Positions 15,706-30,361 of a stretch of DNA of 64,000 bases are shown in pieces (position 1 is the first letter of the stretch; each line of letters opens with the position of its first letter). A model generated the notes under the pieces. The model saw only the letters and a program-made list of their open reading frames with translations. It had not been told where the DNA came from and ran no database searches. The translations under genes and the position numbers were made by a program. The DNA is from Actinomycetes bacterium (GTDB lineage Bacteria; Actinomycetota; CALGFH01): NCBI GenBank assembly GCA_036392615.1, contig DASVXQ010000414.1:204-64203 (forward strand), given 5' to 3'.

Positions 15706-15975
15706 CCAGGCCGCCGTGCGCATACGATCCATCCAGGCGTACACACTCTGGCGGGAACCCACCGTTCGGCCGCCTCGGTCAGCGCCAGCCCGTCACGCAG
15801 GACCTCCATGACGGCGCCGTCGGGTCGCTCGAGCACCCGGTACTCCCGAGCACTCTTCCGCCCCTCTCAGGCTCGGCCGCACAAGACGGCCACGATGGGG
15901 AAGGCCAGACGGCATATGTCGCGCTGTCAGTTCGTGCGGCGAGCCCTGAACGGACGACGCCCGGGGCTGCCTGCC

Positions 15976-17344
15976 TCAATCCCGCTCCCGCACCGCCCTC
16001 GGCGTGCTGGTTGAGGGCGTCTGCGGCGTGCCGAACGGCTGGAACGCCGTCTCCCTGATCAGCGGGAGGCTGATCGCTGCGGCCAGGGCGACGGTGCTGG
16101 CGTAGTAGGCGGGAATGAGGGAGTTGCCGGTGCGCCGGACCAGCAGCGTATCCAAGAAAGGGAGCGGTTCCGCCGATGATCGCGCTAGCCAGCCCGTAGG
16201 TGATCGACAGCGCGGAGGAGCGGACCCGCGTTGGCACCAACTCGGACAGGTAGGTGGGCAGAACGAAGCAGCTAAGCGCCAAGCCGATCAGGAGATACCC
16301 CAACGGGAGCCCGATGGGTCCGGCTCGATGCACAAGCAGGTAGGCCGGCACGATGAGCGTGAGCAGGCCGAGCGTCCCAGCGGTCAACAGTGGCCTTCGG
16401 CCGACGCGGTCGGACAGGTGCCCGAGGGCGGGTGCGGTGGTGACCATCAACGCCAAGCCAACCAGTGTGGCCGCCAGTGCCCTGATGAGCGGGACGCCCC
16501 GCGCAGCCACCAGATGGCTCGGCAGGAAGACGAAGAACGTGTTGAAGGTGAGCGAGGCGGCGGCGACCAGCCCAAAGCCCACAAGCAGCCGCCCCGGATA
16601 GGCGCGCACCGCCTCGATCGCCGGCCGGCGGGCGACGACCCGGGCGCGCAGCATGGCGCGGAAACGCGGCGTCTCGTCGAGACGCCGCCGCAGGTACAAC
16701 CCGACCAATCCAAGCGGCAGGGCGAGCAGGAAAGCCAGCCGCCAGCCCCATGCCTCCAACGTGGCCCGTGGCAGCAGCCCGACCAGGACGGCGGCCATGC
16801 CGATGCCCGCCGCCAGACCCAGCGCCAGCGTGCCCCACAGCTATGCGCCGTACCACCCGCGCCGGTGCATCGGCGCGTACTCAACGACAAACGCCGATGA
16901 ATTGCCGCCCTCCCCGCCCGCCGAGAGTCCCTGCGCGGACCGGAGCACCACCAGCAGGACCGGGGCCGCCAGGCCGATCGACGCGGCACCGGGCAGTATC
17001 CCGATGCCAGCCGTCGCCAGCGACATCAGGATGATCACGGTGGCGAGTACGTGCCGGCGGCCGCGTCGGTCGCCGCGTCGGCCAAACAGCACCGCACCTA
17101 CCGGACGTAACACGAATGCGGTGGCAAATATCGCGAAGGCGGCCAGCAGGCCGGCGGTGTGATCAGCGCGTGGGAAATACCTACTCGCAATCACGGTTGC
17201 GAAGGCACCATATATGGCGAAATCATACCACTCGACGGCGTTCCCGATGCAGGCGGCTACCAGCGCCCGCCTTGACGCCGACTGTCTGGCAAATTCCTCG
17301 GTACGCTCTGCGCCAGTGGCACAATGCAGGCCCTGATTTCTCAT
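15976..17344 (-). pseudogene. MFS metabolite:H+ symporter (ProP/sugar-porter-like) disrupted by an in-frame TAG and a frameshift
   Basis: N-half GNAVEWYDFAIYGAFA ... VLFGRRGDRRGRR ... LRSAQGLSAGGEGG ends at TAG (complement of 16841-16843) in the same frame as the C-half (WGTLALGLAAGIGMAAVLV...). Near 16150-16162 the frame switches: the conserved tail LDTLLVRRTGNSLIPAYYASTVALAAAISLPLIRETA is readable only in another frame, down to the stop at 15976. Confidence 0.65.
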
Positions 17345-17765
17345 GGCGATCGCCCCGCTGGGCCGCTCATCCCCGGCAGCGTACGCCGCGAGTGGTTCAG
17401 GACGCCTGGTCAGTCCGGGTAAAGCGCCGAGCATGGATCACGCCGTCGGGCAGGAACGCACTGTTGGGCAAAAGAGGAACCAGCGGTGCGGCGAGCGGTC
17501 CAGCTGGCACATCAATCCGTGCGAAAGGAACACCCAGGCCGAGATTGGCGGGTGGCCAGCGACCCGGCGGGCACGCCTGAGATCAAGGCCTCCACGGCCA
17601 CAACCAGCTTTTCAGACACCCTCTGGCCACCGGCCGATGGGCTGCACAGCGGGGGACGTTCGACCCTTCCGGCCAAGCGCGCGAAATGGCCACATGTCAG
17701 TGACGGCGCACGGCCGTCGCCATGACGTGGCGTGCGCCAGCGCATCCAGCAGGGATGGTGATCGT

Positions 17766-18224
17766 ATGACAGCAACCGAAGTCGTGACACAGACAGCCCA
17801 TGACGCCCAGCGTGACCAGCGCACCGGACGGATGCTCCCGACAGCGGTCGCCGTCGGCGGCCTGTGGCTGGCCATGGCGCTCAGCAGCGTGTTCGCGCCG
17901 GACCTGATCTCCAGCGACCAGGACCACGTGCCCATCATGGCGATCACGATCTGGATCTGGGGGGCGGTGGCTACCGGCTTCGTCCTGTTCGGCGCCGCTT
18001 TCCCGACCCGCGACCGGATGGCGCGGTGGGGCCTGCCCGTGGCCGTGCTGGGTATCTGGGGCGCGGTCGCGCTGGTGAGCATCTTCGCGCCGACCATCGT
18101 GGCCGGCAGCGATGGGACGATCGTCCCGGTCGCCGGGCTGTTCAGTCCGGCCGCCGGCGCCATCGCGACGGGGTACGCGTGTCTGGCGGCCGCCTGGTCG
18201 GCCGTGTCGGAGCGGCGCCTTTGA
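17766..18224 (+). CDS. Hypothetical 4-TM membrane protein
   Basis: Internal ATG 17766. Hydrophobic helices: AVAVGGLWLAMALSSVFA, IMAITIWIWGAVATGFVLFGAAF, LPVAVLGIWGAVALVSIFA, AAGAIATGYACLAAAW. No recognisable family. Confidence 0.4.
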   Translation: MTATEVVTQTAHDAQRDQRTGRMLPTAVAVGGLWLAMALSSVFAPDLISSDQDHVPIMAITIWIWGAVATGFVLFGAAFPTRDRMARWGLPVAVLGIWGAVALVSIFAPTIVAGSDGTIVPVAGLFSPAAGAIATGYACLAAAWSAVSERRL

Positions 18225-18374
18225 GCGTCCACCCGCACGCGCTCCCGTCGAGCACCAGAAGGCGTAGCCGACTCGGCTCTGGCGCCGGACGTGAAGCGGC
18301 CCAAGGCATCCAGGGCCGCTCCGGTAACCTGCTGGCCGTGCATCCTGCCAGCGGCCGTGCCATCCGCGTACCAC

Positions 18375-18605
18375 TTACTGGCCGACAGCGTGGTCCCGCG
18401 AAGGTGTCATGCGCAGTAGCTGGTCGCGGAGCTGGCGGGTGGGTTCGGAGGGGTCGTCGCCGAGGTTGGCCATGCGCAGCTCCGGTCGGCGATAGGTGCG
18501 GCGGGTCTCCTCGACGTGGCCGAGTTGCGCGTGGACGCGCATGATCTGCTGGTACAGCTCCTCGTTGTAGGGATCCCAGCGGACCGCCTGCTCGAGCAGC
18601 TCACC
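18375..18605 (-). pseudogene. C-terminal BTAD (bacterial transcriptional activator domain) fragment of a SARP/AfsR-type regulator
   Basis: LLEQAVRWDPYNEELYQQIMRVHAQLGHVEETRRTYRRPELRMANLGDDPSEPTRQLRDQLL matches the BTAD consensus (..DP..E.....LM.....G......Y......L..ELG..PS..T..L...I). No N-terminal wHTH is present. Confidence 0.45.
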
Positions 18606-18860
18606 AGCCTTGACCAGACCGTCGGCGAGCTGCTCGCCCGTCACCTGCCCAAGGGCGCCGACCCGCGCCTGGCCCGGGTCGCCGTCGAGCAGCTGCTGAC
18701 CATGACCAGCGGGCTGGCCGGCGACGACCCGTCGCTGGGCGGCGACCGAAGCGTGATGGACGGCCTGATTGGCAGCCGCGACTGGGTCCGCCACATCCTG
18801 GGCGGGCGGCTGGCCACAACACCGGGGACCCGCTTTGCCTACAGCAGCGCGAGGATGCCG
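18606..18860 (+). pseudogene. Internal fragment of a serine hydrolase / class-C beta-lactamase-family protein
   Basis: VGELLARHLP...VAVEQLLTMTSGLAGDDP....WVRHILGGRLATTPGTRFAYSSA resembles the '...LLTHTSGL... PG..F.YSN' block. The SxxK nucleophile region and the C-terminus are missing. Confidence 0.4.
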
Positions 18861-19158
18861 ACAACCTGATCGGCGAGACGATCATCCCGGCCGTCACCGG
18901 CTAGCCGTCTGGACAGCCTCCTGTCAGGGCGAGCCGTGTCAGCTGCGGCGAAAGTAGCGCGGGGAGGTGGGCGCCTTCGCGGAGTTCCGGACGCAACCAT
19001 CGGGTGCTTGGGGAGCGGCTGCTCTGCCTCCTCAAGCCGATCACAGTGGCAACGACCCCGGCGGATCACGCCAGACCGCACAGCGAGCTTGCGCCCTCCG
19101 TGGTGGTTCAACGGCGTCGGACCAGCTGCGAACGCCCCGGTGGCAGCAGTCCGGAGGC

Positions 19159-19578
19159 TTAGCGGGCGACCAGGACTGGCCGGTCGGCGTGGTGAACAAG
19201 CCGGTTAGACACCGAGCCCAGCAGCAGCCGGTGGCCCAGGCCGTGGCCGCGGTTGCCGACCACCACCACGTCCGCACCATGCTCGGCGGCCAGGGCCTCC
19301 AGTTCGGCCGCCGGCTCACCGGTGCGCACCTCGAAGCGCCAGGGCACGCCCAGCGGGTCCAGCACCTCGGCGGTCCGCTCGGTCACCAGCCGGTCCGCCT
19401 CCTTCCAGCGCGCCTGCAAGTCCTCCAAGCCGAGCACCTGGGGCGTCCCGAGTGAGGGCAGGTAGTGAACGTGGACGACGGTGAGGGTGGCTCCGGTTTC
19501 CTTGGCCAGTTGCCCAGCCCGACGGGTGGCGTCCGCTGCAGCGTCCGAGCCGTCCACGCCGATCATGATCTCACGCAT
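19159..19578 (-). CDS. Universal stress protein (UspA family)
   Basis: MREIMIGVDGSDAAADATRRAGQLA...TLTVVHV ... ADVVVVGNRGHGLGHRLLLGSVSNRLVHHADRPVLVA. Internal ATG (complement of 19576-19578) with GGAGAGG upstream. Confidence 0.8.
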   Translation of the reverse strand: MREIMIGVDGSDAAADATRRAGQLAKETGATLTVVHVHYLPSLGTPQVLGLEDLQARWKEADRLVTERTAEVLDPLGVPWRFEVRTGEPAAELEALAAEHGADVVVVGNRGHGLGHRLLLGSVSNRLVHHADRPVLVAR

Positions 19579-19799
19579 TGCCGCCTCTCCTTGTGGGGGC
19601 ATATCTCCACGTTCAGTGTGCTTTCCGGTGGCGGCCGCGGCGACGGCCGGAGGACCCTCGACCGGTGGGACGTCCGGCGAGTCCTGGGCTCCATCGTCCG
19701 AAAACGGAGCCGGCCAGCCACACCGGCGCGGCGCTTGCATGGGCCCGAAATGAAGCCTTCCAGTTCACCTATTGCCGAACTCAGCCAGCCGTGACTGCC

Positions 19800-19995
19800 A
19801 GGTGGCTGTGCTGATCGGCGACCAGCTGCTGGGCAAATGCCCGGCCGGCCCCATGCGCGCCCTCAACCGCCCAGCATCGCTGCGGCCAGGGCCCAGCCCA
19901 TTCACGCAAGTGCTGATAGCCAACGTGGGTAGCTGGGAAGTGCTGCTGGTCCAGCAGCCGGCCGTGCTCATCCAGCGCGGCGGCGGTCTGGGAGC
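19800..19995 (-). mobile_element. IS110-family transposase, N-terminal fragment only
   Basis: My translation of the minus strand gives ALDEHGRLLDQQHFPATHVGYQHLREWAGPWPQRCWAVEGAHGAGRAFAQQLVAD. This is the typical DEDD_Tnp_IS110 N-terminal pattern, truncated at both ends. Confidence 0.5.
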
Positions 19996-19997
19996 CT

Positions 19998-20290
19998 TAG
20001 AGGTCGCTTTGAGCAGTGGGGAGTCGTGGCGGTTCGCCTCCGCCAGGACCCTGCCCAGCGGGATGCCGTAGCCGTCGGTCACGCCGGAACGCTTCAGGCC
20101 CTGTTTGCCCCGGTCCGCCGGGGAGCGGCCGGCCGCTTCGCCGCCTCCGGGGGCCTTGGTGATCGCGCCGTCGACGGCGATCCGCTTCAGCTCCAGCCGA
20201 CGATGCGGTCGTAGGCGTCCAGAGCGATCTGTTTGAGGGTGCTGAAGACGCCGAGCTCGATCCACTCGTCGCGACGGTGGTGCTGTGCCG
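19998..20290 (-). mobile_element. IS5/IS4-superfamily (DUF4096 + DDE_Tnp_1 type) transposase internal fragment with a frameshift
   Basis: DEWIELGVFSTLKQIALDAYDRIVG (one frame) continues as LELKRIAVDGAITKAPGGGEAAGRSPADRGKQGLKRSGVTDGYGIPLGRVLAEANRHDSPLL (another frame). Compare the IS5-like '...IDGS.v.A..GGe.tG.nP.DRgK.G.K.h...D..G.PL......AN.HD...L'. Confidence 0.5.
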
Positions 20291-20346
20291 TGCTGATGTG
20301 TGCTGGCTGGTGTTGGAGCCGATGGACGCACGATGGACGCACATCG
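20287..20346 (+). repeat. Imperfect direct repeat, copy 1 (partner at 63931-63989; 15-nt core also at 61262-61276)
   Basis: AGCCGATGGACGCACGATGGACGCACATCG (20317-20346) versus AGCCGATGGACGCACCATGGACACATATCG (63960-63989): 27 of 30 positions identical, ungapped. Upstream the copies share the blocks GCCGTGCTG and GGTGTTGG, with indels between them. Confidence 0.5.
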
Positions 20347-20587
20347 CCTTCCCTGTAATGCCCGTCACCGCTTTCGACCGAGGTTGGCGGGGCTGTGATG
20401 ACGCTGTCCTGGCCGGGCCGCCGGTTCGGCGTCGTCCGCAAGCAGGTGGCACGACGTGGGGGCCGGTGCGCCACGGGTAGCCCCCGTGTGGGCGCGCCCT
20501 CCGCAATCGTCGGGGCGGGCATGTATCAGGAGCGGATCCAGCGCCTCAATCCTCGTGGACGGTCTCGTCGGTTCGAGGAGAGACCAG

Positions 20588-23500
20588 GTGGCTGAGCCAT
20601 TTGTCGTCAAGGGAGGGGTCCGCCCGCGCAGGCAGGGCGGCTCCGTCGCCGGGTACACGGTCGAAGGGCGCCTAAAGCGCGTGATCGGCGACGCAGGAGA
20701 GTCCGTGGAGGTGCCGGCGTCGGGGCGCGCCCGGCTCGAAGCGCCAGGTACGTTCGAGTTCGCCGTCGATGGGCCGGGTGAGCCCAGCGGGCCGCTGACC
20801 CTCACCGTGAGCGCCCCGGATGGCACGAGCGTCTTCAGCGCCGAATACACGCTCGAGGAGGCAAGCCGGCCGCTCCGCATCCGGGTCGAGACCCGGCCGA
20901 AGTTCGACATCGAGCCGAGCAACGATCCCACGCTCGGGGCCCGCACGCGCCTGACCGGCGAGGTGATCGACGCCCACGGCCGCGACGTGCCCGCCGCGCT
21001 GCCGGTTGTCATCTGGGCGACCGACCCGTCCGCCAACGGGGCGCAGCCGGCCCCGCGGCCGCTGCTGGTGACCGAGACCCAGTCCGGCGGGAGCTTCTCC
21101 GCGGACTGGCCTGCCGACGTCCTGGCCGAGGCCGAGGGTCGCGTCTCCGGCGCCGATCCCGTGCCGGTTCCGCTCGACGACGCCGGGCGCCTGCCCGCGC
21201 GCATCCTGCTGGTGGTCGACCTGGACGAGGTGGAGGGCCTCGACCCCGACGACACCTGCGGGTGCTCCGACACGCCGCCGCGCGCCGTCGACCCGGGAGA
21301 CGTCACCGCCAACCCGACGGCGTTCTCGCAGGACCTGGGCGGCGGCTGCGTCGAGCTCTCGATGCCCGACCGCACGCTCGAGGAGTTCAGCTACTTCACC
21401 GTGGTCCGCACGTCCGAGCCCGCCGTCAAGGGCGTCACCCTCGGCACCCGCACCGCGGTGCCCGACGTCCTCATCGCCGACCTGCTCGCCGTCTCGGTCG
21501 CTTCGCAGGCGCTCAAGGGCGAGGTGGTCACCGGGTCCCTGAGCCGCCTGCCCGTCCAGGGGCTGATGCTGGACGCCGCCACGGCGAAGGTGCTTGTGCG
21601 CACCGACCGGCCGCCCAGCGTCGCCGAGATCGGGCGGGCCGCCTGGCTCTCAAGCGTCGGCCAGACCAAGGAGCTGATCGACGCCGGTCTGCGCGTCGAC
21701 ACCGGCCGCACCGTGCTGGACGCCGACCACGCGATCGACTGGGACGACACGCCGACCGTCCACTTGGCCATCCAGATCGCGCACGGCCACGTGCTGCAGT
21801 ACCGCGAGGTGTGGCGCGCGGACGGCTACTCCCTGGGGGACCTGCTCTACTCGCTGCCGCTCGCGCCTGGTCAGCGCCGCCAGGTGGCGGTCGTGGACTG
21901 GGACCGGCGCGCGAGTTCGGCGCGGACCGAGAGCCTCGAGTTCGAGGAGGAGCTCGACGCGCTCCTGGCTCGCGACCGCGATATCAGGGAGATCGTCGGC
22001 TCCGACCTTCACGAGCAGACGTCGGCTGGGTCGCGCAACACGACGTGGGGAGTCGCCGGCGGCATCGGTGCCGGATTCATCGGCAGCGGCTTCGGGATCT
22101 TCGGCGGTGTGGCCGGCGGGGCCGGAGGCTCGGACTCGAGCTCGTGGCAGCGCTCTTCGCGGCAGTTCGCCGCTGACTCGCTGCAGAGCCTCCGCGATCG
22201 CGTGTCGCAGCGGGCCTCGTCGACTCGCAGCCTGCGCTCGTCGGTCGTGCAGAGCGTCGCCCAGGGCGAGACCCTGCGTGCTGAGACCGAGCTCGTCGCC
22301 AACTACAACCACTGCCACGCGATCACAATCGAGTACTTCCAGGTACTGCGCCATCTGCTGGTCACGCACGAGCTGGCCGACGTTCAGGAGTGCCTGTTCG
22401 TTCCGCTGCCGGTCGGGGAGTTCGACCGCGGCAAGGCGCTTCGCTGGAGGGAGCCCCTGACCCGCTACCTCAGGGACCGCAGCCTTCGCGGCGGGTTCGA
22501 CGCGATCGAGCGCGTCGCCGACAACTGGGTCGGGTGGGACTTCCCCGAGTCCCGGTACAGCGAGGAGGCCCCTGAGTCGCTCGAGGGCGAGCTGCGGATC
22601 AGCTTCCTGCTGCCGCGACCCCGCGACGACGAGGATGGCAAGTTCCAGGTCGACCAGTGGAAGTGGCTCCTGCCCTTCCTGCCGACCGACGCGCTCGAGC
22701 TTTGGACCGCCCGGCTCAACGAGCGCACCGCCCGCGAGCGCGACCGCATCTTCCGCGAGGAGGTCGCACCCGAGATCGCCAAGAACCTCGTCAACCAGTT
22801 GCGCTTCGCGTACGTCGGAGCCGACGGCGGCGAGACGGAGATCTCGCTCGACGCGACGCTCGTCTCGCGTTACGCGGAGCGGACGCCGCTGTACGTCACC
22901 CTCAACCCCCGCGGCTCCCTTCCTGCGGTCCCGCGGGAGGACATCGCGCACTTCAAGCTGTGGTACGCGGGGACAGCGCTGCCGCCCGACGCGCAGATCA
23001 TCGTCCACAGCGGCCGGCTGCGCTACAACGCGGCGCACTCGAGCGCGCTGCTGTTCGACGACCCGCGGATCCTGGACGACATCCGTTCCGGCGACCCGGT
23101 CATCGTCAGCACCCCGGTCAGCCGCGCCGAGCTTCGCAACCCGCGAGACGAGGACCGCGACTTCGCCGACCGCCTGGTCGCCCACCTCAACCAGGCGCTG
23201 GAGTACTACCACCAGGCGATTTGGGTGAGTCTGGACGCACAGCGCCGCTACATGCTGCTGGACGCGGTCCTGGTGCCCGGCCTCGGCGGCAAGAGCATCG
23301 CGAGCGTCTGCACCAACGAGCTGATCGGCATCGTCGGCAACAACCTCGTACTGCCGGTCGCGCCCGGACAGCGCCTCGACCCGAGTCTCGCCGACCTCGA
23401 CCCCGAGCAGGGGCGCGTGGAGCTGATCAACGCCTACGCCACGCCGCCCAGCCCGCCGCTTCGCATCAGCATCCCCACCCGCGGCGTCTACGCCGAAGCC

Positions 23501-25837
23501 GTCTCCGGCAAGTGCAGCGCCTGCGAGGAGATCGACGACAGCCGCTACTGGCGCTGGACGCCCGACGGGCAGCTCGCCCTGCCCGAGATCAGCCCCGTCT
23601 CGACCGCGAGCCGCGCCAGCGAGGAGCCGGACCTGACGCCCACGCCGCTCCCCACGCCGCTGGTCTCGATCCAGAACGCCCCCGAGGTCCCGGACCCGTT
23701 CGGGCTCAAGTCCGCGTTCGAGCTGATCTCCAAGCCCGACCTGTTCCGCGACATCACCGGCCTGGAGGGCACGCAGAAGAACGCGCGCGCCGCCTTCGAG
23801 GGTGCCCTGTCGGCCGCGTCGGCGCTCGGCGAGCAGGCGCACACCCTCGCCACGCAGCAGGAGCTCGGCAAGAACGCCGGCCGGATGATCGACCGCATCA
23901 GCCAGGCGAAGAAGGACGGCCTGCTGACCGATGCCAGCGCGCAGGCGCTCACCAACTCGGCGCTCAAGGGGCTCGTCGGCGAGCCGCGCAAGGACGAGGC
24001 CACGCCTGGGACACCGGACCCGGTGAAGGACGTGGTGGACAAGGCCTCGCAGGCGGACAAGGCCGAGATCAAGGTCACGAACCCCACCGAGACCGTCGAG
24101 GTCAGCTTCGACGAGACTTCCGCCCCAGCGGTTGGTGGAGGGGCGAAGCCGCAGATCTTCGATCCGCCGGACCCGTTCGTCGACCAGGACATCGTCATCG
24201 AACAGCCGGCGTCGTTCAACGCCGCGCCTGGGGCGCGCTCCCTGAACAGCGGGCGCGTGACGACCTACGCCCAGCTCGCCAAGGTCCTCGGTGCCGGCCT
24301 CGCCAAGATGGAGGCCGATGTCAAGGTTCGCAAGAACCCCGCCGACCTGTCCAAATACCAGCTGCGAAGCCAGCTTCGGATTGCCTACCCGGCCGACCCC
24401 AAGGCGCCGACGCGGGTCTTCGGCTCCGGCCGCCTGCCCGTCGTCGTGATCGCCCACGGTATGTTCGGGAAGAACTGGTCCCTGGGGGCCTCCCACCCGA
24501 GCCACGAGGGGTACACGTACCTGCAGGAGGCCCTCGCGGGGCAGGGAATCGTGTCGGTGTCGGTCGACATGAACGCGGCGAACTTCTTCCGGTCGATCGT
24601 CGAGATGCGCGCGGAGATGTTCCTGGGCGCGCTCGACCGGCTGAGGGCGATGGACGCCGACAAGACCTCCCGGTTCTTCGGGCGGCTCGACTTCGACAAG
24701 GTCGGTGTCATGGGTCACTCCCGGGGTGGGGAGGCCGCCGTTGCCGCCGCCCGGCTGAACGCCGCCCGCACGACCAACAAGTACGGCGTCAAGGCCGTCT
24801 GCGCGCTCTCGCCGACCGACTGGACCGGCACCCTGGTGCCCGCCCAAGTCATCACCGCGGACGCGGCGTCGACGCCGTTCCTGCTCGTTCTGTACCCGGG
24901 GCTCGACGGAGACCTCGGCGGGGACGGCGGCGCGCGGAGCTGGGAGGGTACCGGATTCCGCACCTACGACCGTTCCGGCAGCGACAAGTCCATCGTGATG
25001 ATCGACCACGCATGCCACAACCGGTTCAACACGCAGTGGACGCCTGAAGAGGACACCATCCATCCCGACGACACCAAGCCGGGCGGACGCCTGCTCGTCG
25101 CCGCCGACCACCAGAAGCTGGCAAGCGAGTACATCGGCGGCCTGTTCCGCTGGAAGCTCCTGGGCCAGACCTCGCAGCGGGACTTGTTCACCGGGAAGAA
25201 GGTGAACGGCCGCGGGACACCGACGTCGATCCAGTGGTCGTTCGGCGCCAAACGCCAGCCGCTGGACGAGCTCGAGCCCGGCGTGGCGCCGCCCGCCGGA
25301 ACCCGCACGCTGGTCGACTCCGCCGTTGCGCTGATGCCCGACATCCAGGTGCCGCGCGGCGCGGGGACGGCAAGACTGGAGATGGAGACCAACCACCAGG
25401 CCGGTGTGCTCGCCGTTGCCCCGGGGCAGCTCGGCCCGGCGCTGACCACCTACCGGCTCGACCTGCCGAGCCCGCAGGACTGGACGGGCTTCGACCAGCT
25501 GACCTTCCGGCTGGCCGTCGACGCGGATCTCTCCACCGCGGCGACGATTGCCGCCTCCCCCAACCCTGAGTACGAGCTACGGATCATCGACGACGCCGGC
25601 AAGACGGCGATCGTCCCGAGCTCCAAGCTCCAGACTCCGCCGAAGCCCGTCTTCCACACGTATGGCGCCCCGGGTGGCAACGAGAACTGCACCGTCATCC
25701 GGCTGCAGACGATCGCGGTGCCGGTCACGTCGCTCACGGGGATCGACCGGACCAAGGTCAAGGTCGTCGAGATCCTGCCGCGCGCCAGCTTCACCAACGT
25801 CATGTTCTTTGACTCGCTTCAGCTCGTCAGGCAGTGA
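20588..25837 (+). CDS. Giant protein A (1749 aa): N-terminal beta-sandwich-like region + large uncharacterised conserved core + C-terminal alpha/beta-hydrolase (GHSRGG) and beta-sandwich (CBM-like) cassette
   Basis: Uninterrupted ORF. GTG 20588 lies 7 nt after GAGGAG. The core is collinear with ORF 26141 (WRADGYSLGDLLYSLPLAPGQ; ANYNHCHAITIEYFQVLRH; YYHQAIWVSLDAQRRYMLLD; GKCSACEEIDDSRYWRW). The tail has RLPVVVIAHG, GVMGHSRGGEAA (Ser codon 24719-24721), LYPGLDGD and IDHACHNRFN. Confidence 0.8.
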   Translation: MAEPFVVKGGVRPRRQGGSVAGYTVEGRLKRVIGDAGESVEVPASGRARLEAPGTFEFAVDGPGEPSGPLTLTVSAPDGTSVFSAEYTLEEASRPLRIRVETRPKFDIEPSNDPTLGARTRLTGEVIDAHGRDVPAALPVVIWATDPSANGAQPAPRPLLVTETQSGGSFSADWPADVLAEAEGRVSGADPVPVPLDDAGRLPARILLVVDLDEVEGLDPDDTCGCSDTPPRAVDPGDVTANPTAFSQDLGGGCVELSMPDRTLEEFSYFTVVRTSEPAVKGVTLGTRTAVPDVLIADLLAVSVASQALKGEVVTGSLSRLPVQGLMLDAATAKVLVRTDRPPSVAEIGRAAWLSSVGQTKELIDAGLRVDTGRTVLDADHAIDWDDTPTVHLAIQIAHGHVLQYREVWRADGYSLGDLLYSLPLAPGQRRQVAVVDWDRRASSARTESLEFEEELDALLARDRDIREIVGSDLHEQTSAGSRNTTWGVAGGIGAGFIGSGFGIFGGVAGGAGGSDSSSWQRSSRQFAADSLQSLRDRVSQRASSTRSLRSSVVQSVAQGETLRAETELVANYNHCHAITIEYFQVLRHLLVTHELADVQECLFVPLPVGEFDRGKALRWREPLTRYLRDRSLRGGFDAIERVADNWVGWDFPESRYSEEAPESLEGELRISFLLPRPRDDEDGKFQVDQWKWLLPFLPTDALELWTARLNERTARERDRIFREEVAPEIAKNLVNQLRFAYVGADGGETEISLDATLVSRYAERTPLYVTLNPRGSLPAVPREDIAHFKLWYAGTALPPDAQIIVHSGRLRYNAAHSSALLFDDPRILDDIRSGDPVIVSTPVSRAELRNPRDEDRDFADRLVAHLNQALEYYHQAIWVSLDAQRRYMLLDAVLVPGLGGKSIASVCTNELIGIVGNNLVLPVAPGQRLDPSLADLDPEQGRVELINAYATPPSPPLRISIPTRGVYAEAVSGKCSACEEIDDSRYWRWTPDGQLALPEISPVSTASRASEEPDLTPTPLPTPLVSIQNAPEVPDPFGLKSAFELISKPDLFRDITGLEGTQKNARAAFEGALSAASALGEQAHTLATQQELGKNAGRMIDRISQAKKDGLLTDASAQALTNSALKGLVGEPRKDEATPGTPDPVKDVVDKASQADKAEIKVTNPTETVEVSFDETSAPAVGGGAKPQIFDPPDPFVDQDIVIEQPASFNAAPGARSLNSGRVTTYAQLAKVLGAGLAKMEADVKVRKNPADLSKYQLRSQLRIAYPADPKAPTRVFGSGRLPVVVIAHGMFGKNWSLGASHPSHEGYTYLQEALAGQGIVSVSVDMNAANFFRSIVEMRAEMFLGALDRLRAMDADKTSRFFGRLDFDKVGVMGHSRGGEAAVAAARLNAARTTNKYGVKAVCALSPTDWTGTLVPAQVITADAASTPFLLVLYPGLDGDLGGDGGARSWEGTGFRTYDRSGSDKSIVMIDHACHNRFNTQWTPEEDTIHPDDTKPGGRLLVAADHQKLASEYIGGLFRWKLLGQTSQRDLFTGKKVNGRGTPTSIQWSFGAKRQPLDELEPGVAPPAGTRTLVDSAVALMPDIQVPRGAGTARLEMETNHQAGVLAVAPGQLGPALTTYRLDLPSPQDWTGFDQLTFRLAVDADLSTAATIAASPNPEYELRIIDDAGKTAIVPSSKLQTPPKPVFHTYGAPGGNENCTVIRLQTIAVPVTSLTGIDRTKVKVVEILPRASFTNVMFFDSLQLVRQ

Positions 25838-25848
25838 AAGGACTCGCC

Positions 25849-26130
25849 ATGAACGTCACCGACGTCATCTTCGAGCGACCCGACGACCCGCCGGACCCCG
25901 CCTACGTGCTCCGCGTCAGCATCGTCGGGACCGGACTCACCAGGTCGGGCCCCCAGCTCGTCGCGCAGGTCGGGGACATCCCGGTGCGCGACCTGATCAG
26001 CCTGTTCGAACAGGAAGGGGTCGTGGGGTTCCTGGAGGCCGAGCCGCCGGTGGGCGCAGCCGTGCGGGTGGGGTATCTGGGCAAGGAAATGATCGACAGC
26101 GGCCAGAGCTACCAGCCGCCGAACGTCTGA
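25849..26130 (+). CDS. Small 93-aa protein of unknown function wedged between the two giant genes
   Basis: ATG 25849 is preceded by GAAAGGA and lies 11 nt after the stop of A. Its stop lies 10 nt before the ATG of B. Product: MNVTDVIFERPDDPPDPAYVLRVSIVGTGLTRSGPQLVAQVGDIPVRDLISLFEQEGVVGFLEAEPPVGAAVRVGYLGKEMIDSGQSYQPPNV (beta-rich, acidic, no TM or signal). Confidence 0.55.
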   Translation: MNVTDVIFERPDDPPDPAYVLRVSIVGTGLTRSGPQLVAQVGDIPVRDLISLFEQEGVVGFLEAEPPVGAAVRVGYLGKEMIDSGQSYQPPNV

Positions 26131-26140
26131 GGGGACGACC

Positions 26141-29100
26141 ATGACACGCATCGCCGGCAAGCTGACCTCCGACACAGCGGGTGATCTGTCCGGCCTGAGC
26201 GTGGTCGCCACCTTCGAGGAGCGCGTCCAGATCGGTGACGCGAGCGACTTCCGCCCTGGCCGCCGCGAGACCCAGACCGGCCCAGGCGGGCAGTTCGATC
26301 TGGAGGTCCCCGACGCAGACGGCCGGCGCGGTCCGGTCACGATCACCGCCTACGGTAGGGACGGGCTCGACACGGGCGAGGTCGAGCTGGCGGCCGAGGG
26401 CCCGTTCGACGAGGTCGTGGTCGAGGTCGCACTGGGAACGCCGACGTCGGTCACACCCAGCGACGACATCACCCTCGGCGAGCAGCTCAAGTACACGGGG
26501 CGGGTCATCGACCCGTCCGGCCGCGGAGTCGACGCGGGCCTGATAACCGTCATCTGGGCGCGGGCCGATGGCGAGGATCCCGCTCCGGTCAGCGTGACCC
26601 GCACCGCCCAGGCGGGATACATCTCCGGGCCGTGGGTGTCGCAGACCTACGCGGAGGCCTACGGGGTGGTGTCGGGCGGTGAGCCGATCCCAATCGCACT
26701 CGAAGACTCGCGGTTGCCTCGCCGGTTGATCCTGGTGGTGCCGGTCGCTCCGGCGCAGCCGCACGACGACGACTGCGAGTGCCACGAGACAGGTCCGCTT
26801 CGCTCGCCGGACCAGGTCGACCTGGCCGGCAACCCCGAGGCGTTCGCCCGCGACGCGACCGGCTGCGTCGACTTCACGATCCCCAGCCGGACGGTCGAGG
26901 AGGTCACCTACCAGGCGGTGGTCCGCACGACCCAGCCGGCGCTCAAGGGGACCGTTCCCCGGCGTCCGCCCGTGATCCCGCCCGTCCTGATCGACCGCCT
27001 TGCCAACCTGGCTGAGCTTGGGCTGGCGTTCGACGACCGCGTCGCGGGAGGGCGGTTCATCCGCAGCAACGTGACGACCACACCGGCGCTGACCGCCCGC
27101 GAGGCAGCGGACAACCCCGGACTGGAGGTGACGGATATCGGACGGGGCGGCGCCGCGATCGACGTCGTGACGGCCGCCCTGCGGACGGCTCGGCGCATCC
27201 TGCCGGGCATCGACCTGGACAGCGGAACGTTCCTCGCCGACCCGCCCGACACCATGGCGCGCCGCGCACTGGCGGCGCGGGTCGCCGACCGCGAGCCGCT
27301 TCGCCTGGAGGCATCGGTCATCGGCGAGCTCGTCCGCGAGCCCGGCGGGGTCACCTCGCGCCGCCTGCTCGAGGCGGAGCAGACGAGCGTCGTCCGGTCG
27401 TTCCGGACGGCCGTCGGCCTGCTGGCCACGCCGAACCCCGGGCGCCACGAGCTGGACGACACCCACCAGATCGACTGGGAGCAGATCCCCGACCCGTACC
27501 AGGCGACCACGATCGCCCACGGGCACCTGCTGACGATGAAGCAGGTCTGGCGCGCGGACGGGTACTCGCGCGGCGACCTGCTCTACTCGCTGCCGCTCGC
27601 GCCTGGGCAGCAGAAGCTGATCTCGATCTTGGACTGGAACAGAAGCGAGGTCTCGTCCCGGCGGGCGCAGCGGTTCGAGACCGAGGACCTGCGCGCCGAC
27701 CTGGACCACGACCGCGACGTCTCCGACGTCATCCGCACGACGCTGAGCGAGCGGATGGACGCGAGCTCGCACGCCGACACCGAATCCGTGGCGGCAGGGA
27801 TCGCCGGGTTCATCGGCCCGGTGGTATTCGGCGCGGCGGGCGGCGTCTCGTCCGCGGGCTCGAACGCCAACCAGACATCGGCACGCTCAGTGACGGGCAT
27901 GGCCCTGAACCGCGTCCGCGACCGCACGCTGCAGTCGGCGTCCGCCGTGCGAAGCCAGCGCGCGAGCGTCGTCCAGACGGCCCGCCAGGGCGAGTCGGTG
28001 CGGGCGCAGACCGAGGTCGTCGCCAACTACAACCACTGCCACGCCCTGACGATGGAGTACTTCGAGGTGCTCCGCCACCTCCAGGTCAGCCAGGAGCTCG
28101 CGGCGGTCGACGAATGCCTGTTCATCCCGTTCTCGATCACCCCGTTCAGCGCGAGTAAGGCGCTTCGCTGGCGCGATCCCCTGCGACGCGGCCTTCGCGA
28201 TCGTTCGCTCGAGTGGGCCTTCGACGCGCTCGAGCGGGTCGACAGCAACTGGGTGGACGCCGACTTCCCCGCGGGGCGCTACGCTGACGAGCCGCTCACC
28301 TACCTGGACGGCGAGTTCTGGATTTCGGCGCGCCTGCCCCGCCCGGCCGACGGGGCCAACGGCGAGTTCGCCCAGACGAACTGGAACGCCTACGAGAGCG
28401 CGGGGCTGCTGTGGGACTCGGCGGCGAACATCTGGAACCGGTACATGGGAACCACCGTCGCGGCGCTCCGCGACCGCGTTTGGGACACCCGCGTGGCTCC
28501 CGGCATCGCGCAGCGCCTGCTCGAGCGGCTCACCGTACGCCTGGCGGAGGACGGCGCGGCGTCGTCGACGCTCTCGGTCGACCCGACCCTGGTGGACTCG
28601 TTCGCCCAGGATCGGGAGATGCTCGTCGCGCTCCGAGTCAACACGCCGCTCCCGGTCAAGACCCGCAGCCAGGTCGACCGGGTCGAGATCTCCCTCGCGG
28701 TCACCAACCTGCCCCCGGGGGCGGAGCTGACCGTTCGAAGCGGCACGGTGCGCTACCGCACCGACCATCTGACCGCCGACCTGTTCGGCAGCCGGCGGAT
28801 CCAGAACGACCTGACCCTCGGCGACACCGTCGAGATCGCCACGCCGCTGACGCTGCAGGAAAAACGCGACCCGCGCCAGCGCGACCGCCGGTATGCCGCG
28901 CGGCTCCTGGATCACCTGAACGACCACGTCGAGCACTACCACCGGGCCATCTGGCTGACCATGGACCCGAACCGTCGCTACATGCTGCTGGACGGCTTCG
29001 TCGCACCGGACGCCGGCGGCAAGAGCGTCGCGTCAGTGGTCGAGAACCGCGTGATCGGCGTCGTCGGCAACAGCCTGGTCATGCGCGTGGCGCCCGGCAT

Positions 29101-30361
29101 CAAGCTCGACTCCACCTACCAGTACGCGGGCCGCACAGTCAACGACCTCCGCAACCTCTACGCGGGCGAGTCGGCGCCGCCGATGCGGATCAGCCTGCCG
29201 ACCTCCGGCATCTTCGCCGAGGCCGTCCTGGGCAAATGCAACAGCTGCGAGACGATCGACGACACCAGGTTCTGGCGCTGGGAGGAGGCCCCGATCCCGG
29301 ACCGGCCCACACCGATCCAGGCGCTCTCGACCGACAGCCGCCGCACCACGCCGCCGTCGCTCACCCCGGACCAGTTCCCCGACGCCCTGGTGCGTCTGCA
29401 GGACGTGCCGTCCGCCCCGGACCCGACCGGGCTGGGCGCCGCCCTCGCTGCGCTCGGCATGGGCAACATCTTCAAGGACCTGACCGGCCTCGCGCTGAAC
29501 CAGTCGAACGCCGCCGAGGGGCTCAAGGCGTCGCTCACCGCGGCGCAGGGGTTCGCCTCGCGCGCCGGCGCGCTCGCGCAGCAGAAGTTCCTCAACCGCG
29601 AGCTCGACCGAAGCCTCGACCACATCAAGGACGCCCGCGACAAGAAGCTCATCACCGACGACCAGGCGAAGTCACTCACCGAGAGCGTCCTGCGCGGCGC
29701 GATCGGCGAGCCGAGGCCGCAGCAGGCCTCGCCGATCGACGACCCGGCGGTCCAGCGGGCGATGGAGCGGGTGCCCAGGTCGGCGAACGGATCGCTCCGG
29801 GTGGTCCGGCCCGACGGAACCGTCGAGGTCAAGACGGGCCGGGCGGTGTCGCCGGCGATCGACGTGGCCGTCGACCCGGCGGTCGCGCCGGTCCTTCAGC
29901 CGAGCGACATGACCTGCTGGGCGGCGGGCGGCACGATGATGGACTCCTGGCGAGCGCAGCAATCCAAGACCATCGAGTCTGTGCTCGACCAGCTCGGCGG
30001 GGACTGGCGCACGAAGTTCGACGCCAACGAGGGGTTGAGCGCCGCCGAGTTCCGCGCGTTCGCCGGTGTCCTCAATCTGGTGGAGGAGGGGCCGGCCAGC
30101 TACACGCCGCAGGGCCTGGCACGGCTCCTGACCGAGCGTGGGCCGTTGCTCGAGATCGGCGACGACGGGATCGAGAACAACAAGATCGTCCACGTGCGGA
30201 TCATCACGGCGGTCAGGGGCGATGGCAGCGCCGATGGGACAACGGTCACCCTCGCCGACTCGGCCACCGGCACGATCGTCACCGAGCCGTTCTCCGAATT
30301 CGACCGCCGCCACGGCGCCACCGACGCCGTCGACGTCGGCCTGGGGCTCTTCCACTACTGA
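26141..30361 (+). CDS. Giant protein B (1406 aa): paralog of A over the N-terminal region and core, with a different C-terminal papain-like cysteine peptidase/amidase cassette
   Basis: ATG 26141 follows GAGGGGA. Core motifs: WRADGYSRGDLLYSLPLAPGQ, ANYNHCHALTMEYFEVLRH, HYHRAIWLTMDPNRRYMLLD, GKCNSCETIDDTRFWRW. The tail has LQPSDMTCWAAGGTMMDSW (Gln 29897, Cys 29915) and NKIVHVRIITAVRGDG (His 30191). Confidence 0.8.
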   Translation: MTRIAGKLTSDTAGDLSGLSVVATFEERVQIGDASDFRPGRRETQTGPGGQFDLEVPDADGRRGPVTITAYGRDGLDTGEVELAAEGPFDEVVVEVALGTPTSVTPSDDITLGEQLKYTGRVIDPSGRGVDAGLITVIWARADGEDPAPVSVTRTAQAGYISGPWVSQTYAEAYGVVSGGEPIPIALEDSRLPRRLILVVPVAPAQPHDDDCECHETGPLRSPDQVDLAGNPEAFARDATGCVDFTIPSRTVEEVTYQAVVRTTQPALKGTVPRRPPVIPPVLIDRLANLAELGLAFDDRVAGGRFIRSNVTTTPALTAREAADNPGLEVTDIGRGGAAIDVVTAALRTARRILPGIDLDSGTFLADPPDTMARRALAARVADREPLRLEASVIGELVREPGGVTSRRLLEAEQTSVVRSFRTAVGLLATPNPGRHELDDTHQIDWEQIPDPYQATTIAHGHLLTMKQVWRADGYSRGDLLYSLPLAPGQQKLISILDWNRSEVSSRRAQRFETEDLRADLDHDRDVSDVIRTTLSERMDASSHADTESVAAGIAGFIGPVVFGAAGGVSSAGSNANQTSARSVTGMALNRVRDRTLQSASAVRSQRASVVQTARQGESVRAQTEVVANYNHCHALTMEYFEVLRHLQVSQELAAVDECLFIPFSITPFSASKALRWRDPLRRGLRDRSLEWAFDALERVDSNWVDADFPAGRYADEPLTYLDGEFWISARLPRPADGANGEFAQTNWNAYESAGLLWDSAANIWNRYMGTTVAALRDRVWDTRVAPGIAQRLLERLTVRLAEDGAASSTLSVDPTLVDSFAQDREMLVALRVNTPLPVKTRSQVDRVEISLAVTNLPPGAELTVRSGTVRYRTDHLTADLFGSRRIQNDLTLGDTVEIATPLTLQEKRDPRQRDRRYAARLLDHLNDHVEHYHRAIWLTMDPNRRYMLLDGFVAPDAGGKSVASVVENRVIGVVGNSLVMRVAPGIKLDSTYQYAGRTVNDLRNLYAGESAPPMRISLPTSGIFAEAVLGKCNSCETIDDTRFWRWEEAPIPDRPTPIQALSTDSRRTTPPSLTPDQFPDALVRLQDVPSAPDPTGLGAALAALGMGNIFKDLTGLALNQSNAAEGLKASLTAAQGFASRAGALAQQKFLNRELDRSLDHIKDARDKKLITDDQAKSLTESVLRGAIGEPRPQQASPIDDPAVQRAMERVPRSANGSLRVVRPDGTVEVKTGRAVSPAIDVAVDPAVAPVLQPSDMTCWAAGGTMMDSWRAQQSKTIESVLDQLGGDWRTKFDANEGLSAAEFRAFAGVLNLVEEGPASYTPQGLARLLTERGPLLEIGDDGIENNKIVHVRIITAVRGDGSADGTTVTLADSATGTIVTEPFSEFDRRHGATDAVDVGLGLFHY

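Follow-up and report, generated by a model that had tools for sequence, protein, structure and literature searches.

Organization of the locus and of the conserved motif block

The sequence analyzed here, called the window throughout, is a stretch of 64,000 nucleotides from an Actinomycetes bacterium (assembly GCA_036392615.1, contig DASVXQ010000414.1, positions 204 to 64,203 of the forward strand) with a G+C content of about 70%. Two long open reading frames (ORFs) lie in tandem on its + strand and encode the paralogs A (20456-25837, 1793 aa as an ORF, from the GTG at 20456) and B (26141-30361, 1406 aa). Between them lies a 93-aa ORF on the same strand (25849-26130, ATG at 25849), 11 nt from the stop of A and 10 nt from the ATG of B. 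Protein A has immunoglobulin (Ig)-like domains at its N-terminus, then a conserved core, a Pro-rich linker and a helical hairpin, and ends in an alpha/beta hydrolase; B has the same N-terminal region and core and ends with a Peptidase_C70 domain. The two proteins are 43% identical over 826 aa of core and 38% over the N-terminal region, and their C-termini are unrelated. The present analysis concerns a block of motifs within the core, which is best read as the invariant center of the constant module of a polymorphic toxin-like family of exoproteins. Residue numbers are those of B throughout.

The earlier note on this DNA described one and the same succession of motifs in both paralogs, namely WRADGYS..LAPGQ, an acidic segment, a Gly-rich hydrophobic stretch, a Ser/Arg-rich segment and ANYNHCHA, and this order was recovered with all positions and strings exact. 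In A, where every feature is on the + strand, the HxH motif IAHGH (21776-21790) lies at the base of strand beta1; its second His is invariant and, by coevolution register, the motif faces the E-C of QECLF. WRADGYS(L/R)GDLLYSLPLAPGQ, which reads WRADGYSLGDLLYSLPLAPGQ in A (21812-21874), closes strand beta1 and makes the first fold-back turn. It is followed by strand beta2 and a Glu/Asp-rich acidic segment (21875-22039) that coevolves with an Arg-rich helix, by the glycine-zipper hydrophobic segment TTWGVAGG...GG (TTWGVAGGIGAGFIGSGFGIFGGVAGGAGG, 22040-22129) at the center of a nested hairpin, and by a Ser/Arg/Gln-rich segment comprising a basic helix and strand beta3 (22130-22297). ANYNHCHA (22298-22321) is the second fold-back turn and abuts LAPGQ; strand beta4 (22322-22405, ITIEYFQVLRH ... 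QECLFVP) closes the block with a His and an E-C pair that are invariant or nearly so. The counterparts in B, also on the + strand, are WRADGYSRGDLLYSLPLAPGQ (27548-27610), the Gly-rich hydrophobic segment VAAGIAGF...SSAG (VAAGIAGFIGPVVFGAAGGVSSAG, 27788-27859), ANYNHCHA (28022-28045) and DECLFIP (28109-28129), which contains C659. Two further cysteine pairs flank the block on the same strand: a CxC pair, present in about 80% of the family (DTCGCSD, 21251-21271 in A; DDCECHE, 26768-26788 in B), and a CxxC pair (GKCSACEE, 23507-23530 in A; GKCNSCET, 29231-29254 in B).

As had been noticed earlier, the 36-nt blocks at 21839-21874 and 27575-27610 differ by a single base, and the 23-mer GCCAACTACAACCACTGCCACGC was found at 22298 and 28022 only. 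The two motif blocks are the best two 36-nt windows of the whole core, each with 35/36 identical positions. At residues shared by A and B, 59% of the codons and 85% of the bases are identical, and the G+C content at third codon positions is 92%. The identity of these blocks at the DNA level is explained by the invariance of the amino acids together with codon bias, so that gene conversion is not needed as its source. The two blocks are the most constrained spots.

Family extent and residue conservation

A profile search based on a trimmed alignment was performed against 1.84 billion representative sequences, and matches were counted as clusters at 50% identity. The family comprised at least 3,644 clusters at E <= 1e-3 and 1,975 at 1e-30. 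A word-indexed search yielded 131 homologs, all of them unnamed or named after their C-terminal domain alone, and scanning one genome per GTDB species gave 273 loci confirmed by tblastn. The latter were distributed among Actinomycetota, Alpha-, Beta- and Gammaproteobacteria, Acidobacteriota, Chloroflexota, Nitrospira, Myxococcus, Bdellovibrio, Flavobacteriaceae, a Nitrosopumilus metagenome-assembled genome (MAG) and others. Proteins of the family have 1,100-1,900 residues and share a constant module of about 1,000 residues, for which no match was obtained in Pfam, NCBIfam, PHROGs, PADLOC or PDB sequences, the profile included; full-text literature searches by motif strings and domain combinations returned no description of the family. 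A role as a defence system was discarded for want of a PADLOC match. A phage origin was likewise rejected: the one 'Bacteriophage sp.' record with a homolog (MT835996) is an unverified metagenome contig of high G+C content with no phage genes nearby, and PHROGs gave nothing for the core.

Conservation was evaluated on 94 full-length proteins from 70 loci. The motifs extend well beyond the A/B pair, being near-invariant in these 94 proteins across phyla, as well as in 314 of the 358 sequences collected, and their recurrence is far above what chance would produce. Invariant positions were G461, H462, G474, G478, S483, P488, R582, N629, N631, H634, Y640, F641, H646, C1033 and C1036, while A487, Q490, C633, T637, E658 and C659 were 97-99% conserved (C633 and C659, 98-99%). 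H632 was replaced by Arg in 20% of the proteins, mainly those of the A type. The two cysteine pairs, which had also been described as conserved, fared unequally. The CxxC pair (C1033, C1036) is invariant within the clade of A and B but absent from a sister clade. The CxC cysteines are present in 79-83% of the members and missing in the remaining 17-21%; C242, found in 94% of the proteins, is retained where CxC is lost. B holds about eight cysteines, all of them conserved.

The sister clade consists of proteins of 1,100-1,300 residues from Bacillus, Paenibacillus, Sorangium, Nocardia and others, such as one encoded by the Bacillus tropicus plasmid NZ_CP115304.1 (locus L076, 6383-9700). Among the candidates scored, 898 proteins fell in it at E <= 1e-5, all annotated as hypothetical, and their C-termini carry LAS peptidase, M23, C70 and other domains. 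These proteins display NYNHMH (117/120) and LAPGE (100/120) and are devoid of CxxC, the C659 equivalent being partly kept; at the position of C633, Met is found in 118 of 120. Comparison of the two clades thus reduces the signature of the superfamily to N-x-N-H-x-H plus LAPG, the cysteines being specific to the A/B clade.

Coevolution and predicted structure of the core

Coevolving positions were searched for in region 429-718 by mutual information with average product correction and by mean-field direct coupling analysis (DCA), using 292 distinct sequences (effective number 209). The sum of the two positions, i+j, fell between 1115 and 1123 in 15 of the top 25, 24 of the top 50 and 33 of the top 100 DCA pairs, for expected numbers of 0.7, 1.4 and 2.9, respectively. 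The contacts so defined pair strand beta1 with strand beta4 (458/657, 464/653, 469/652, 471/650), LAPGQ with NYNHCH (489/630), strand beta2 with strand beta3 (495/620, 495/622, 495/624, 497/620), the acidic segment with the Arg-rich helix (505/612, 511/606, 515/602, 533/584) and, innermost, the two sides of the Gly-rich segment, Ser/Thr flanks included (542/577, 545/574, 548/571, 551/566, 556/563). Local beta1-beta2 or beta3-beta4 ladders received no supporting pair among the top 97. Because i+j remains constant along these pairs, residues 458-657 can be described as a single nested antiparallel finger centered on G559, with the two conserved turns side by side. Covariation at the turns provides an independent sign of the LAPGQ–NYNHCH contact: among 314 sequences, Cys489 occurs with His630 (58 cases) or Asn630 (4 cases) and never with Tyr630 (0/62), and Gly489 occurs with Tyr630 in 166 of 225.

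AlphaFold2 models were calculated for residues 1-1200 of B (mean predicted local distance difference test score, pLDDT, 75.7) and for the core alone (pLDDT 77.5). They comprise two N-terminal Ig-like sandwiches and very long strands (459-486, 491-502, 617-628 and 636-663), LAPGQ and NYNHCH occupying the two turns. A helix spans 581-606, residues 640-1030 form an alpha/beta region modeled with very high confidence (pLDDT >90), and the Pro-rich linker and the helical hairpin lie past the core. In these models beta1-beta2 and beta3-beta4 form local hairpins (459-502 and 617-663; window 27515-27646 and 27989-28129), whereas coevolution supports beta1-beta4 and beta2-beta3 pairing only. This mismatch might be explained by a fold-back in two layers, by a barrel that is closed or oligomeric, or by the existence of two conformational states.

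Foldseek searches matched the N-terminal domains only to pilin- or transthyretin-like structures and retrieved, within the core, a PLAT-like sandwich of the lipid-binding type (probability 0.94). The core as such had no fold analogue in PDB or BFVD, apart from one uncharacterized Yasminevirus protein. This sole significant match (BFVD A0A5K0U6Q4, Yasminevirus sp. GU-2018) has 642 residues and was obtained with an E-value of 6.9e-5 and 18% identity over 291 columns. An HK97/encapsulin-like shell fold, considered because a long hairpin, a long helix and long strands follow one another in this order, was rejected: neither model matched a PDB capsid, and BFVD returned one weak match (E 0.068, probability 0.66). 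A beta-pore-forming-toxin fold was rejected as well, leukocidin and aerolysin appearing only at probabilities of 0.01-0.03, with TM-scores <=0.12 and a root mean square deviation >27 Å.

The coevolution register also bears on a proposal of the earlier note, according to which H-C-H, CxC and CxxC could build metal sites or disulfides together. H462 is opposite E658, and G461 opposite C659, at the base of the finger. C633 lies at the fold-back tip and C659 at the base, 26 residues further along the same strand, so that these two cysteines cannot share a site. Given, in addition, that CxC is absent in 17-21% of the proteins and that the sister clade has HMH and is without CxxC, the three elements do not look like a single site.

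The glycine-rich hydrophobic segment

The Gly-rich stretch does not behave as a buried core strand: in the AlphaFold2 models, residues 536-579 have a pLDDT <50 and form a single beta-bridge (548-549/570-571). A GxxxGxxxG glycine zipper was found in 84 of 94 proteins. Gly553, 555, 559, 564, 567 and 568 are 88-97% conserved, with hydrophobic residues between them; Gly555, 559 and 564 (91-97%) count as an i, i+4 spacing since column 560 is mostly a gap. Loop length is fixed: B-type proteins have 85 residues and A-type proteins 89. The hydrophobic stretch itself spans 20-28 residues; Trp is common on both sides, about 29-34 residues apart, and the flanks are acidic on the N-terminal side and Arg-rich on the C-terminal side. 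The spacing of the glycines is helical as much as strand-alternating, within Ser/Thr-rich flanks and the coevolving hairpin (542/577, 545/574, 548/571). The combination of a zipper, an unburied position and a location at the center of a coevolving hairpin makes a membrane-dipping or fusion-peptide-like role plausible, in line with what had been suggested from the sequence of A and B, and the motif block is a fair candidate for the mechanistic heart of the family.

Carboxy-terminal domains, cassette and genomic context

The C-terminal alpha/beta hydrolase and beta domain of A (24392-25834, + strand, GHSRGG at 24713-24730) scored 26.6 bits with PF12740, just under the cut-off of 28. Its 480 residues matched PDB 9xg1, deposited as 'protein-asparaginase', over about 440 residues (E 5.9e-21), and both share the GHSRGG, DGD and HN.FN motifs. 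The domain resembles PETase/cutinase; it may be a protein deamidase or an esterase rather than a lipase or a PETase. In B, Peptidase_C70 (AvrRpt2-like, about 29894-30304, + strand) was identified with Pfam, scoring 62.4 bits on the complete protein and 66.7 bits on the C-terminus alone, the cut-off being 19; we take MTCWAAGG within this stretch to hold the candidate catalytic Cys. A Pfam scan of 88 C-termini and 30 full-length proteins showed that C-terminal domains are interchangeable in the family. They included C70, PETase-like, tyrosinase, GH25, M15_4, Amidase_2, Amidase_6, DUF2272, DUF4056, OmpA, M43 and reprolysin-like domains; M23, YkuD and LAS peptidase of the hedgehog type (HH_signal-like) were also seen. 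N-termini open directly with an Ig-like or a ComEA-like helix-hairpin-helix (HhH) domain, and no signal peptide was seen at them, low-GC genomes with clear starts included.

Paralogs A and B, together with the small ORF between them, form a cassette that recurs across phyla in 29-30 of the 70 loci, with A of about 1,700-1,900 aa (lipase-like end), an ORF of 92-126 aa as called and B of about 1,360-1,440 aa (C70). The 93-aa ORF has no family match in Pfam, PHROG or PADLOC. It is kept in 30 loci with the A-B cassette, from many phyla. Rather than an immunity gene that varies with the toxin type, it is a third, conserved component of the cassette. The closest relative of any A protein is never a B protein, and vice versa; the A and B lineages are distinct and co-inherited, from which it follows that the cassette is old and travels as a unit. 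In a Nitrospira MAG (locus L052, 4815-9956 and 10001-14269), two tandem cores are 96% identical, compared with 44-66% in other cassettes, pointing to a recent duplication or gene conversion and not to the old A/B pair. Another locus (L003) holds the A, small ORF, B cassette in pieces, and family members broken by frameshifts were observed on several long-read metagenome contigs. In one such case, at locus L001 (8404-13267), a 543-aa ORF with HHH_3 overlaps the start of the 1088-aa ORF.

Clustering of flanking ORFs at 73 loci, together with six further contexts, revealed no conserved neighbor, secretion system or recurrent immunity gene, the 93-aa ORF excepted; a linked secretion system or immunity gene was dismissed on this basis, although such all-versus-all clustering would miss immunity genes that vary with the toxin type. 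In the window, the start of A is uncertain, with in-frame GTG codons at 20456, 20588 and 20681; ortholog starts align with YTVEGRL, which in A is preceded by GTC and no start codon, and a GGGAGGGG run lies nearby at 20611-20618. Upstream of A (15779-20400), only gene fragments were recognized. They include a truncated transporter of the major facilitator superfamily on the minus strand (15779-16798) and a beta-lactamase-family fragment (18516-18869), with a low third-position G+C signal elsewhere. This region looks like decayed genes or the edge of an island beside the cassette.

A proposed membrane-inserting finger and alternative explanations

We tentatively favor a model in which the block folds back as a finger and inserts its glycine-zipper tip into a membrane, with a hinge formed by the LAPGQ and NxNHxH turns. 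In this model, beta1 would pair with beta4 and beta2 with beta3, the acidic helix would pair with the Arg-rich helix, and the glycine-zipper hydrophobic hairpin, flanked by Ser/Thr and Trp, would form the far end of the finger. The greasy tip would be held out of the way in the soluble protein; upon membrane contact it would insert, alone or as an oligomer (here probably an A/B hetero-oligomer), and insertion would anchor the C-terminal enzyme at the cell envelope or deliver it there. The NxNHxH and LAPG turns would serve as a rigid hinge holding the fold-back, possibly stabilized by a metal or sensitive to pH. The observations on which the model is built are the conservation of the block, the topology of its coevolution, the modularity of the C-termini and the lack of both signal peptides and conserved partner genes; membrane insertion, oligomerization, hinge behavior and an extracellular role are inferences. 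The PLAT-like sandwich also counts in favor of this model.

Several observations weigh against it. The hydrophobicity of the segment is borderline for a membrane span (the best 19-residue Kyte-Doolittle windows average 1.41, with 1.33 in A and 1.69 in B), and some members of the sister clade replace the Gly segment by a less hydrophobic loop. The i+j pattern is the same for an intramolecular hairpin and for antiparallel intermolecular pairing. No fold link to a known membrane-inserting protein was found, Foldseek E-values being >0.01 for the core and matches to pore-forming toxins having probabilities <=0.03. No immunity gene was found, an unusual situation for a toxin targeting peptidoglycan, no route of export is known, and the C-termini are fixed, not polymorphic, in the A-B cassette.

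A first alternative, compatible with the membrane-inserting finger, is that the conserved His and Cys are ligands of Zn, Cu or Fe that staple the fold and provide stability or redox/pH sensing, not catalysis. Candidate groups are, at the base, HxH 460-462 together with E658/C659; at the tip, H632-C/M633-H634 together with Q490; and, lastly, the CxxC knuckle. Two HxH motifs lie on strands, and coevolution register places H462 across from E658 and G461 across from C659; the coupled G489C/Y630H exchange brings an extra Cys and an extra His to one spot, the Cys-to-Met change of the sister clade retains a soft ligand, the approximately eight cysteines of B are all conserved, and the lack of a signal peptide is consistent with folding in a reducing cytoplasm. 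Against such a staple, no metal-site family was matched, CxC is dispensable in about 20% of the proteins, CxxC is absent from the sister clade, and turn geometry alone accounts for Asn, Pro and Gly in the turns. We consider this explanation plausible, though with some doubt.

Less probable still is the absence of any membrane role, the Gly stretch then being a loop, either flexible or at an oligomer interface, in a large scaffold or enzyme whose polar residues form an active site or an assembly interface for surface display, matrix or cell-wall remodeling by the producer itself. Many invariant polar residues on strands or helix (R435, D473, S483, R582, Q598, R604, E618, E642, H646 and E658) and the high-confidence model of the 640-1030 domain would fit this explanation, as would the lack of immunity genes and the fixed C-termini of A-B cassettes. 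However, the core matches no enzyme family, the extreme Gly/hydrophobic composition and the zipper spacing are conserved across phyla, and the swapping of C-terminal domains is typical of conflict systems.

Tight turns are the site of autoproteolysis in GPS/GAIN, Nup98, ZU5 and FlhB NPTH, and a His precedes the nucleophile at the HL|T and HF|S sites. By analogy, NYNH|CH could be cleaved in cis, through an N-to-S acyl shift at His-Cys or through Asn cyclization, thereby freeing or arming the Gly-rich element; invariant Asn, His and Cys in a turn joining two long strands, the similar placement of His before the nucleophile and a toxin-like architecture, frequently associated with processing, speak for it. 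Processing through a Cys nucleophile is nevertheless weakened by the replacement of Cys633 by Met in 118 of 120 sister-clade proteins, and a few main-clade members have Gly or Ala at this position. Arg takes the place of H632 in 20% of the proteins, mainly A-type, no naturally split genes were noticed at NYNHCH, and no fold or sequence match to autoprocessing modules (GPS/GAIN, Nup98/ZU5, HINT, FlhB NPTH) was obtained. On balance, we regard autoproteolysis as improbable.

The weakest candidate, a single-pass anchor or internal signal-anchor that leaves the N-terminal half in the cytoplasm with the enzyme outside, or is oriented the opposite way, would suit both the extracellular-type C-terminal domains found despite the lack of an N-terminal signal and the 20-28-residue hydrophobic stretch with Trp flanks about 29-34 residues apart, but is very unlikely: the two flanks coevolve over their full length with constant i+j, placing them on the same side unless all contacts are intermolecular, and an acidic N-flank followed by an Arg-rich C-flank leads one to expect an N-out/C-in orientation, with enzymes inside and a need for signal-less export of the 540-residue N-terminus. 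Flank charges and coevolution argue instead for a hairpin with both flanks on one side, as in the membrane-inserting finger.

Comparison with known systems

The family follows the modular logic of polymorphic toxins and bacteriocins (Zhang/Aravind; colicin- and pesticin-like), yet two defining features of polymorphic toxins were not found. As in these systems, a long constant N-terminal region is joined to interchangeable C-terminal enzymes, here C70/C39-like proteases, muramidase, M23, M15, amidases, lipase-like, DUF2272 and DUF4056. The patchy distribution across phyla, which looks horizontal, is another common trait, and the absence of a signal peptide is shared with colicins and pesticin. 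Unlike in polymorphic toxins, no known trafficking domain, linked secretion system (type V, VI or VII, Sec, or Photorhabdus virulence cassette) or recurrent downstream immunity gene was found, the constant module is without family or fold assignment, and in 29-30 loci a conserved 93-aa ORF accompanies two paralogs whose C-termini are fixed.

Glycine zippers occur in the membrane-active toxins VacA and Cdz. A segment of this kind is also required for membrane permeabilization or translocation in the N-terminus of the type VI effector Tde1 (PMC10240207) and in the type VII effectors TelE (PMC10434224) and EsxX (PMC12744356). The present family resembles Tde1, TelE and EsxX in its conserved, GxxxGxxxG-rich and weakly hydrophobic segment. 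It differs from zipper toxins in that the zipper is internal, at the center of a nested hairpin of about 200 residues within a protein of 1,400-1,800 residues, and there is no sequence homology. In the ClyA family (ClyA, Hbl/Nhe, YaxAB/XaxAB, AhlABC), a hydrophobic 'beta-tongue' hairpin ends an antiparallel helical pair on an elongated stalk, and paralogs encoded side by side cooperate. The resemblance to these toxins is one of general design, with no fold match in the Foldseek lists; the stalk here is largely a beta-ribbon, and the proteins are 3-4 times larger and carry enzymes. The translocation domains of AB toxins (TH8-TH9 of the diphtheria toxin T domain; the delivery domain of large clostridial toxins, which have no signal peptides) offer the same concept of a buried hydrophobic hairpin that inserts and helps to carry an enzyme. 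Conserved His residues could likewise be pH sensors, and a papain-like protease domain is found in the same chain (B). In contrast to AB toxins, the enzyme is located at the C-terminus and the apparent targets are bacterial envelopes, not the eukaryotic cytosol; neither sequence nor fold is similar.

A bolder version of the membrane-inserting finger would make the constant module a delivery machine free of any secretion system, in which a metastable, folded-back finger of beta-ribbon and helix, hinged where the LAPGQ and NxNHxH turns abut, straightens when triggered and drives its zipper tip into the membrane, the A/B hetero-oligomer and the 93-aa protein carrying the enzyme across in the cassette form. 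It would represent a new class of device for membrane translocation in bacteria and archaea, with a fold of its own, and we regard this version as rather unlikely.

Significance

Giant proteins with this core number in the thousands and occur in bacteria that are marine, host-associated or from soil; at present the core has no name, domain model or structure. Its bearers include Streptomyces, Mycobacterium, Myxococcus, Bdellovibrio, Bacillus, Paenibacillus, Nitrospira, some archaeal MAGs and one giant virus. With the key residues (the zipper glycines, N629, N631, H632, C633, H634, H462, E658 and C659) and the coevolution topology now defined, the function of the block has become a testable question. 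If the block does serve for membrane insertion or delivery, it would account for the arrival at cell envelopes of enzymes devoid of a signal peptide, and it would constitute a new route of interbacterial antagonism or self-lysis as well as a portable module for protein delivery.

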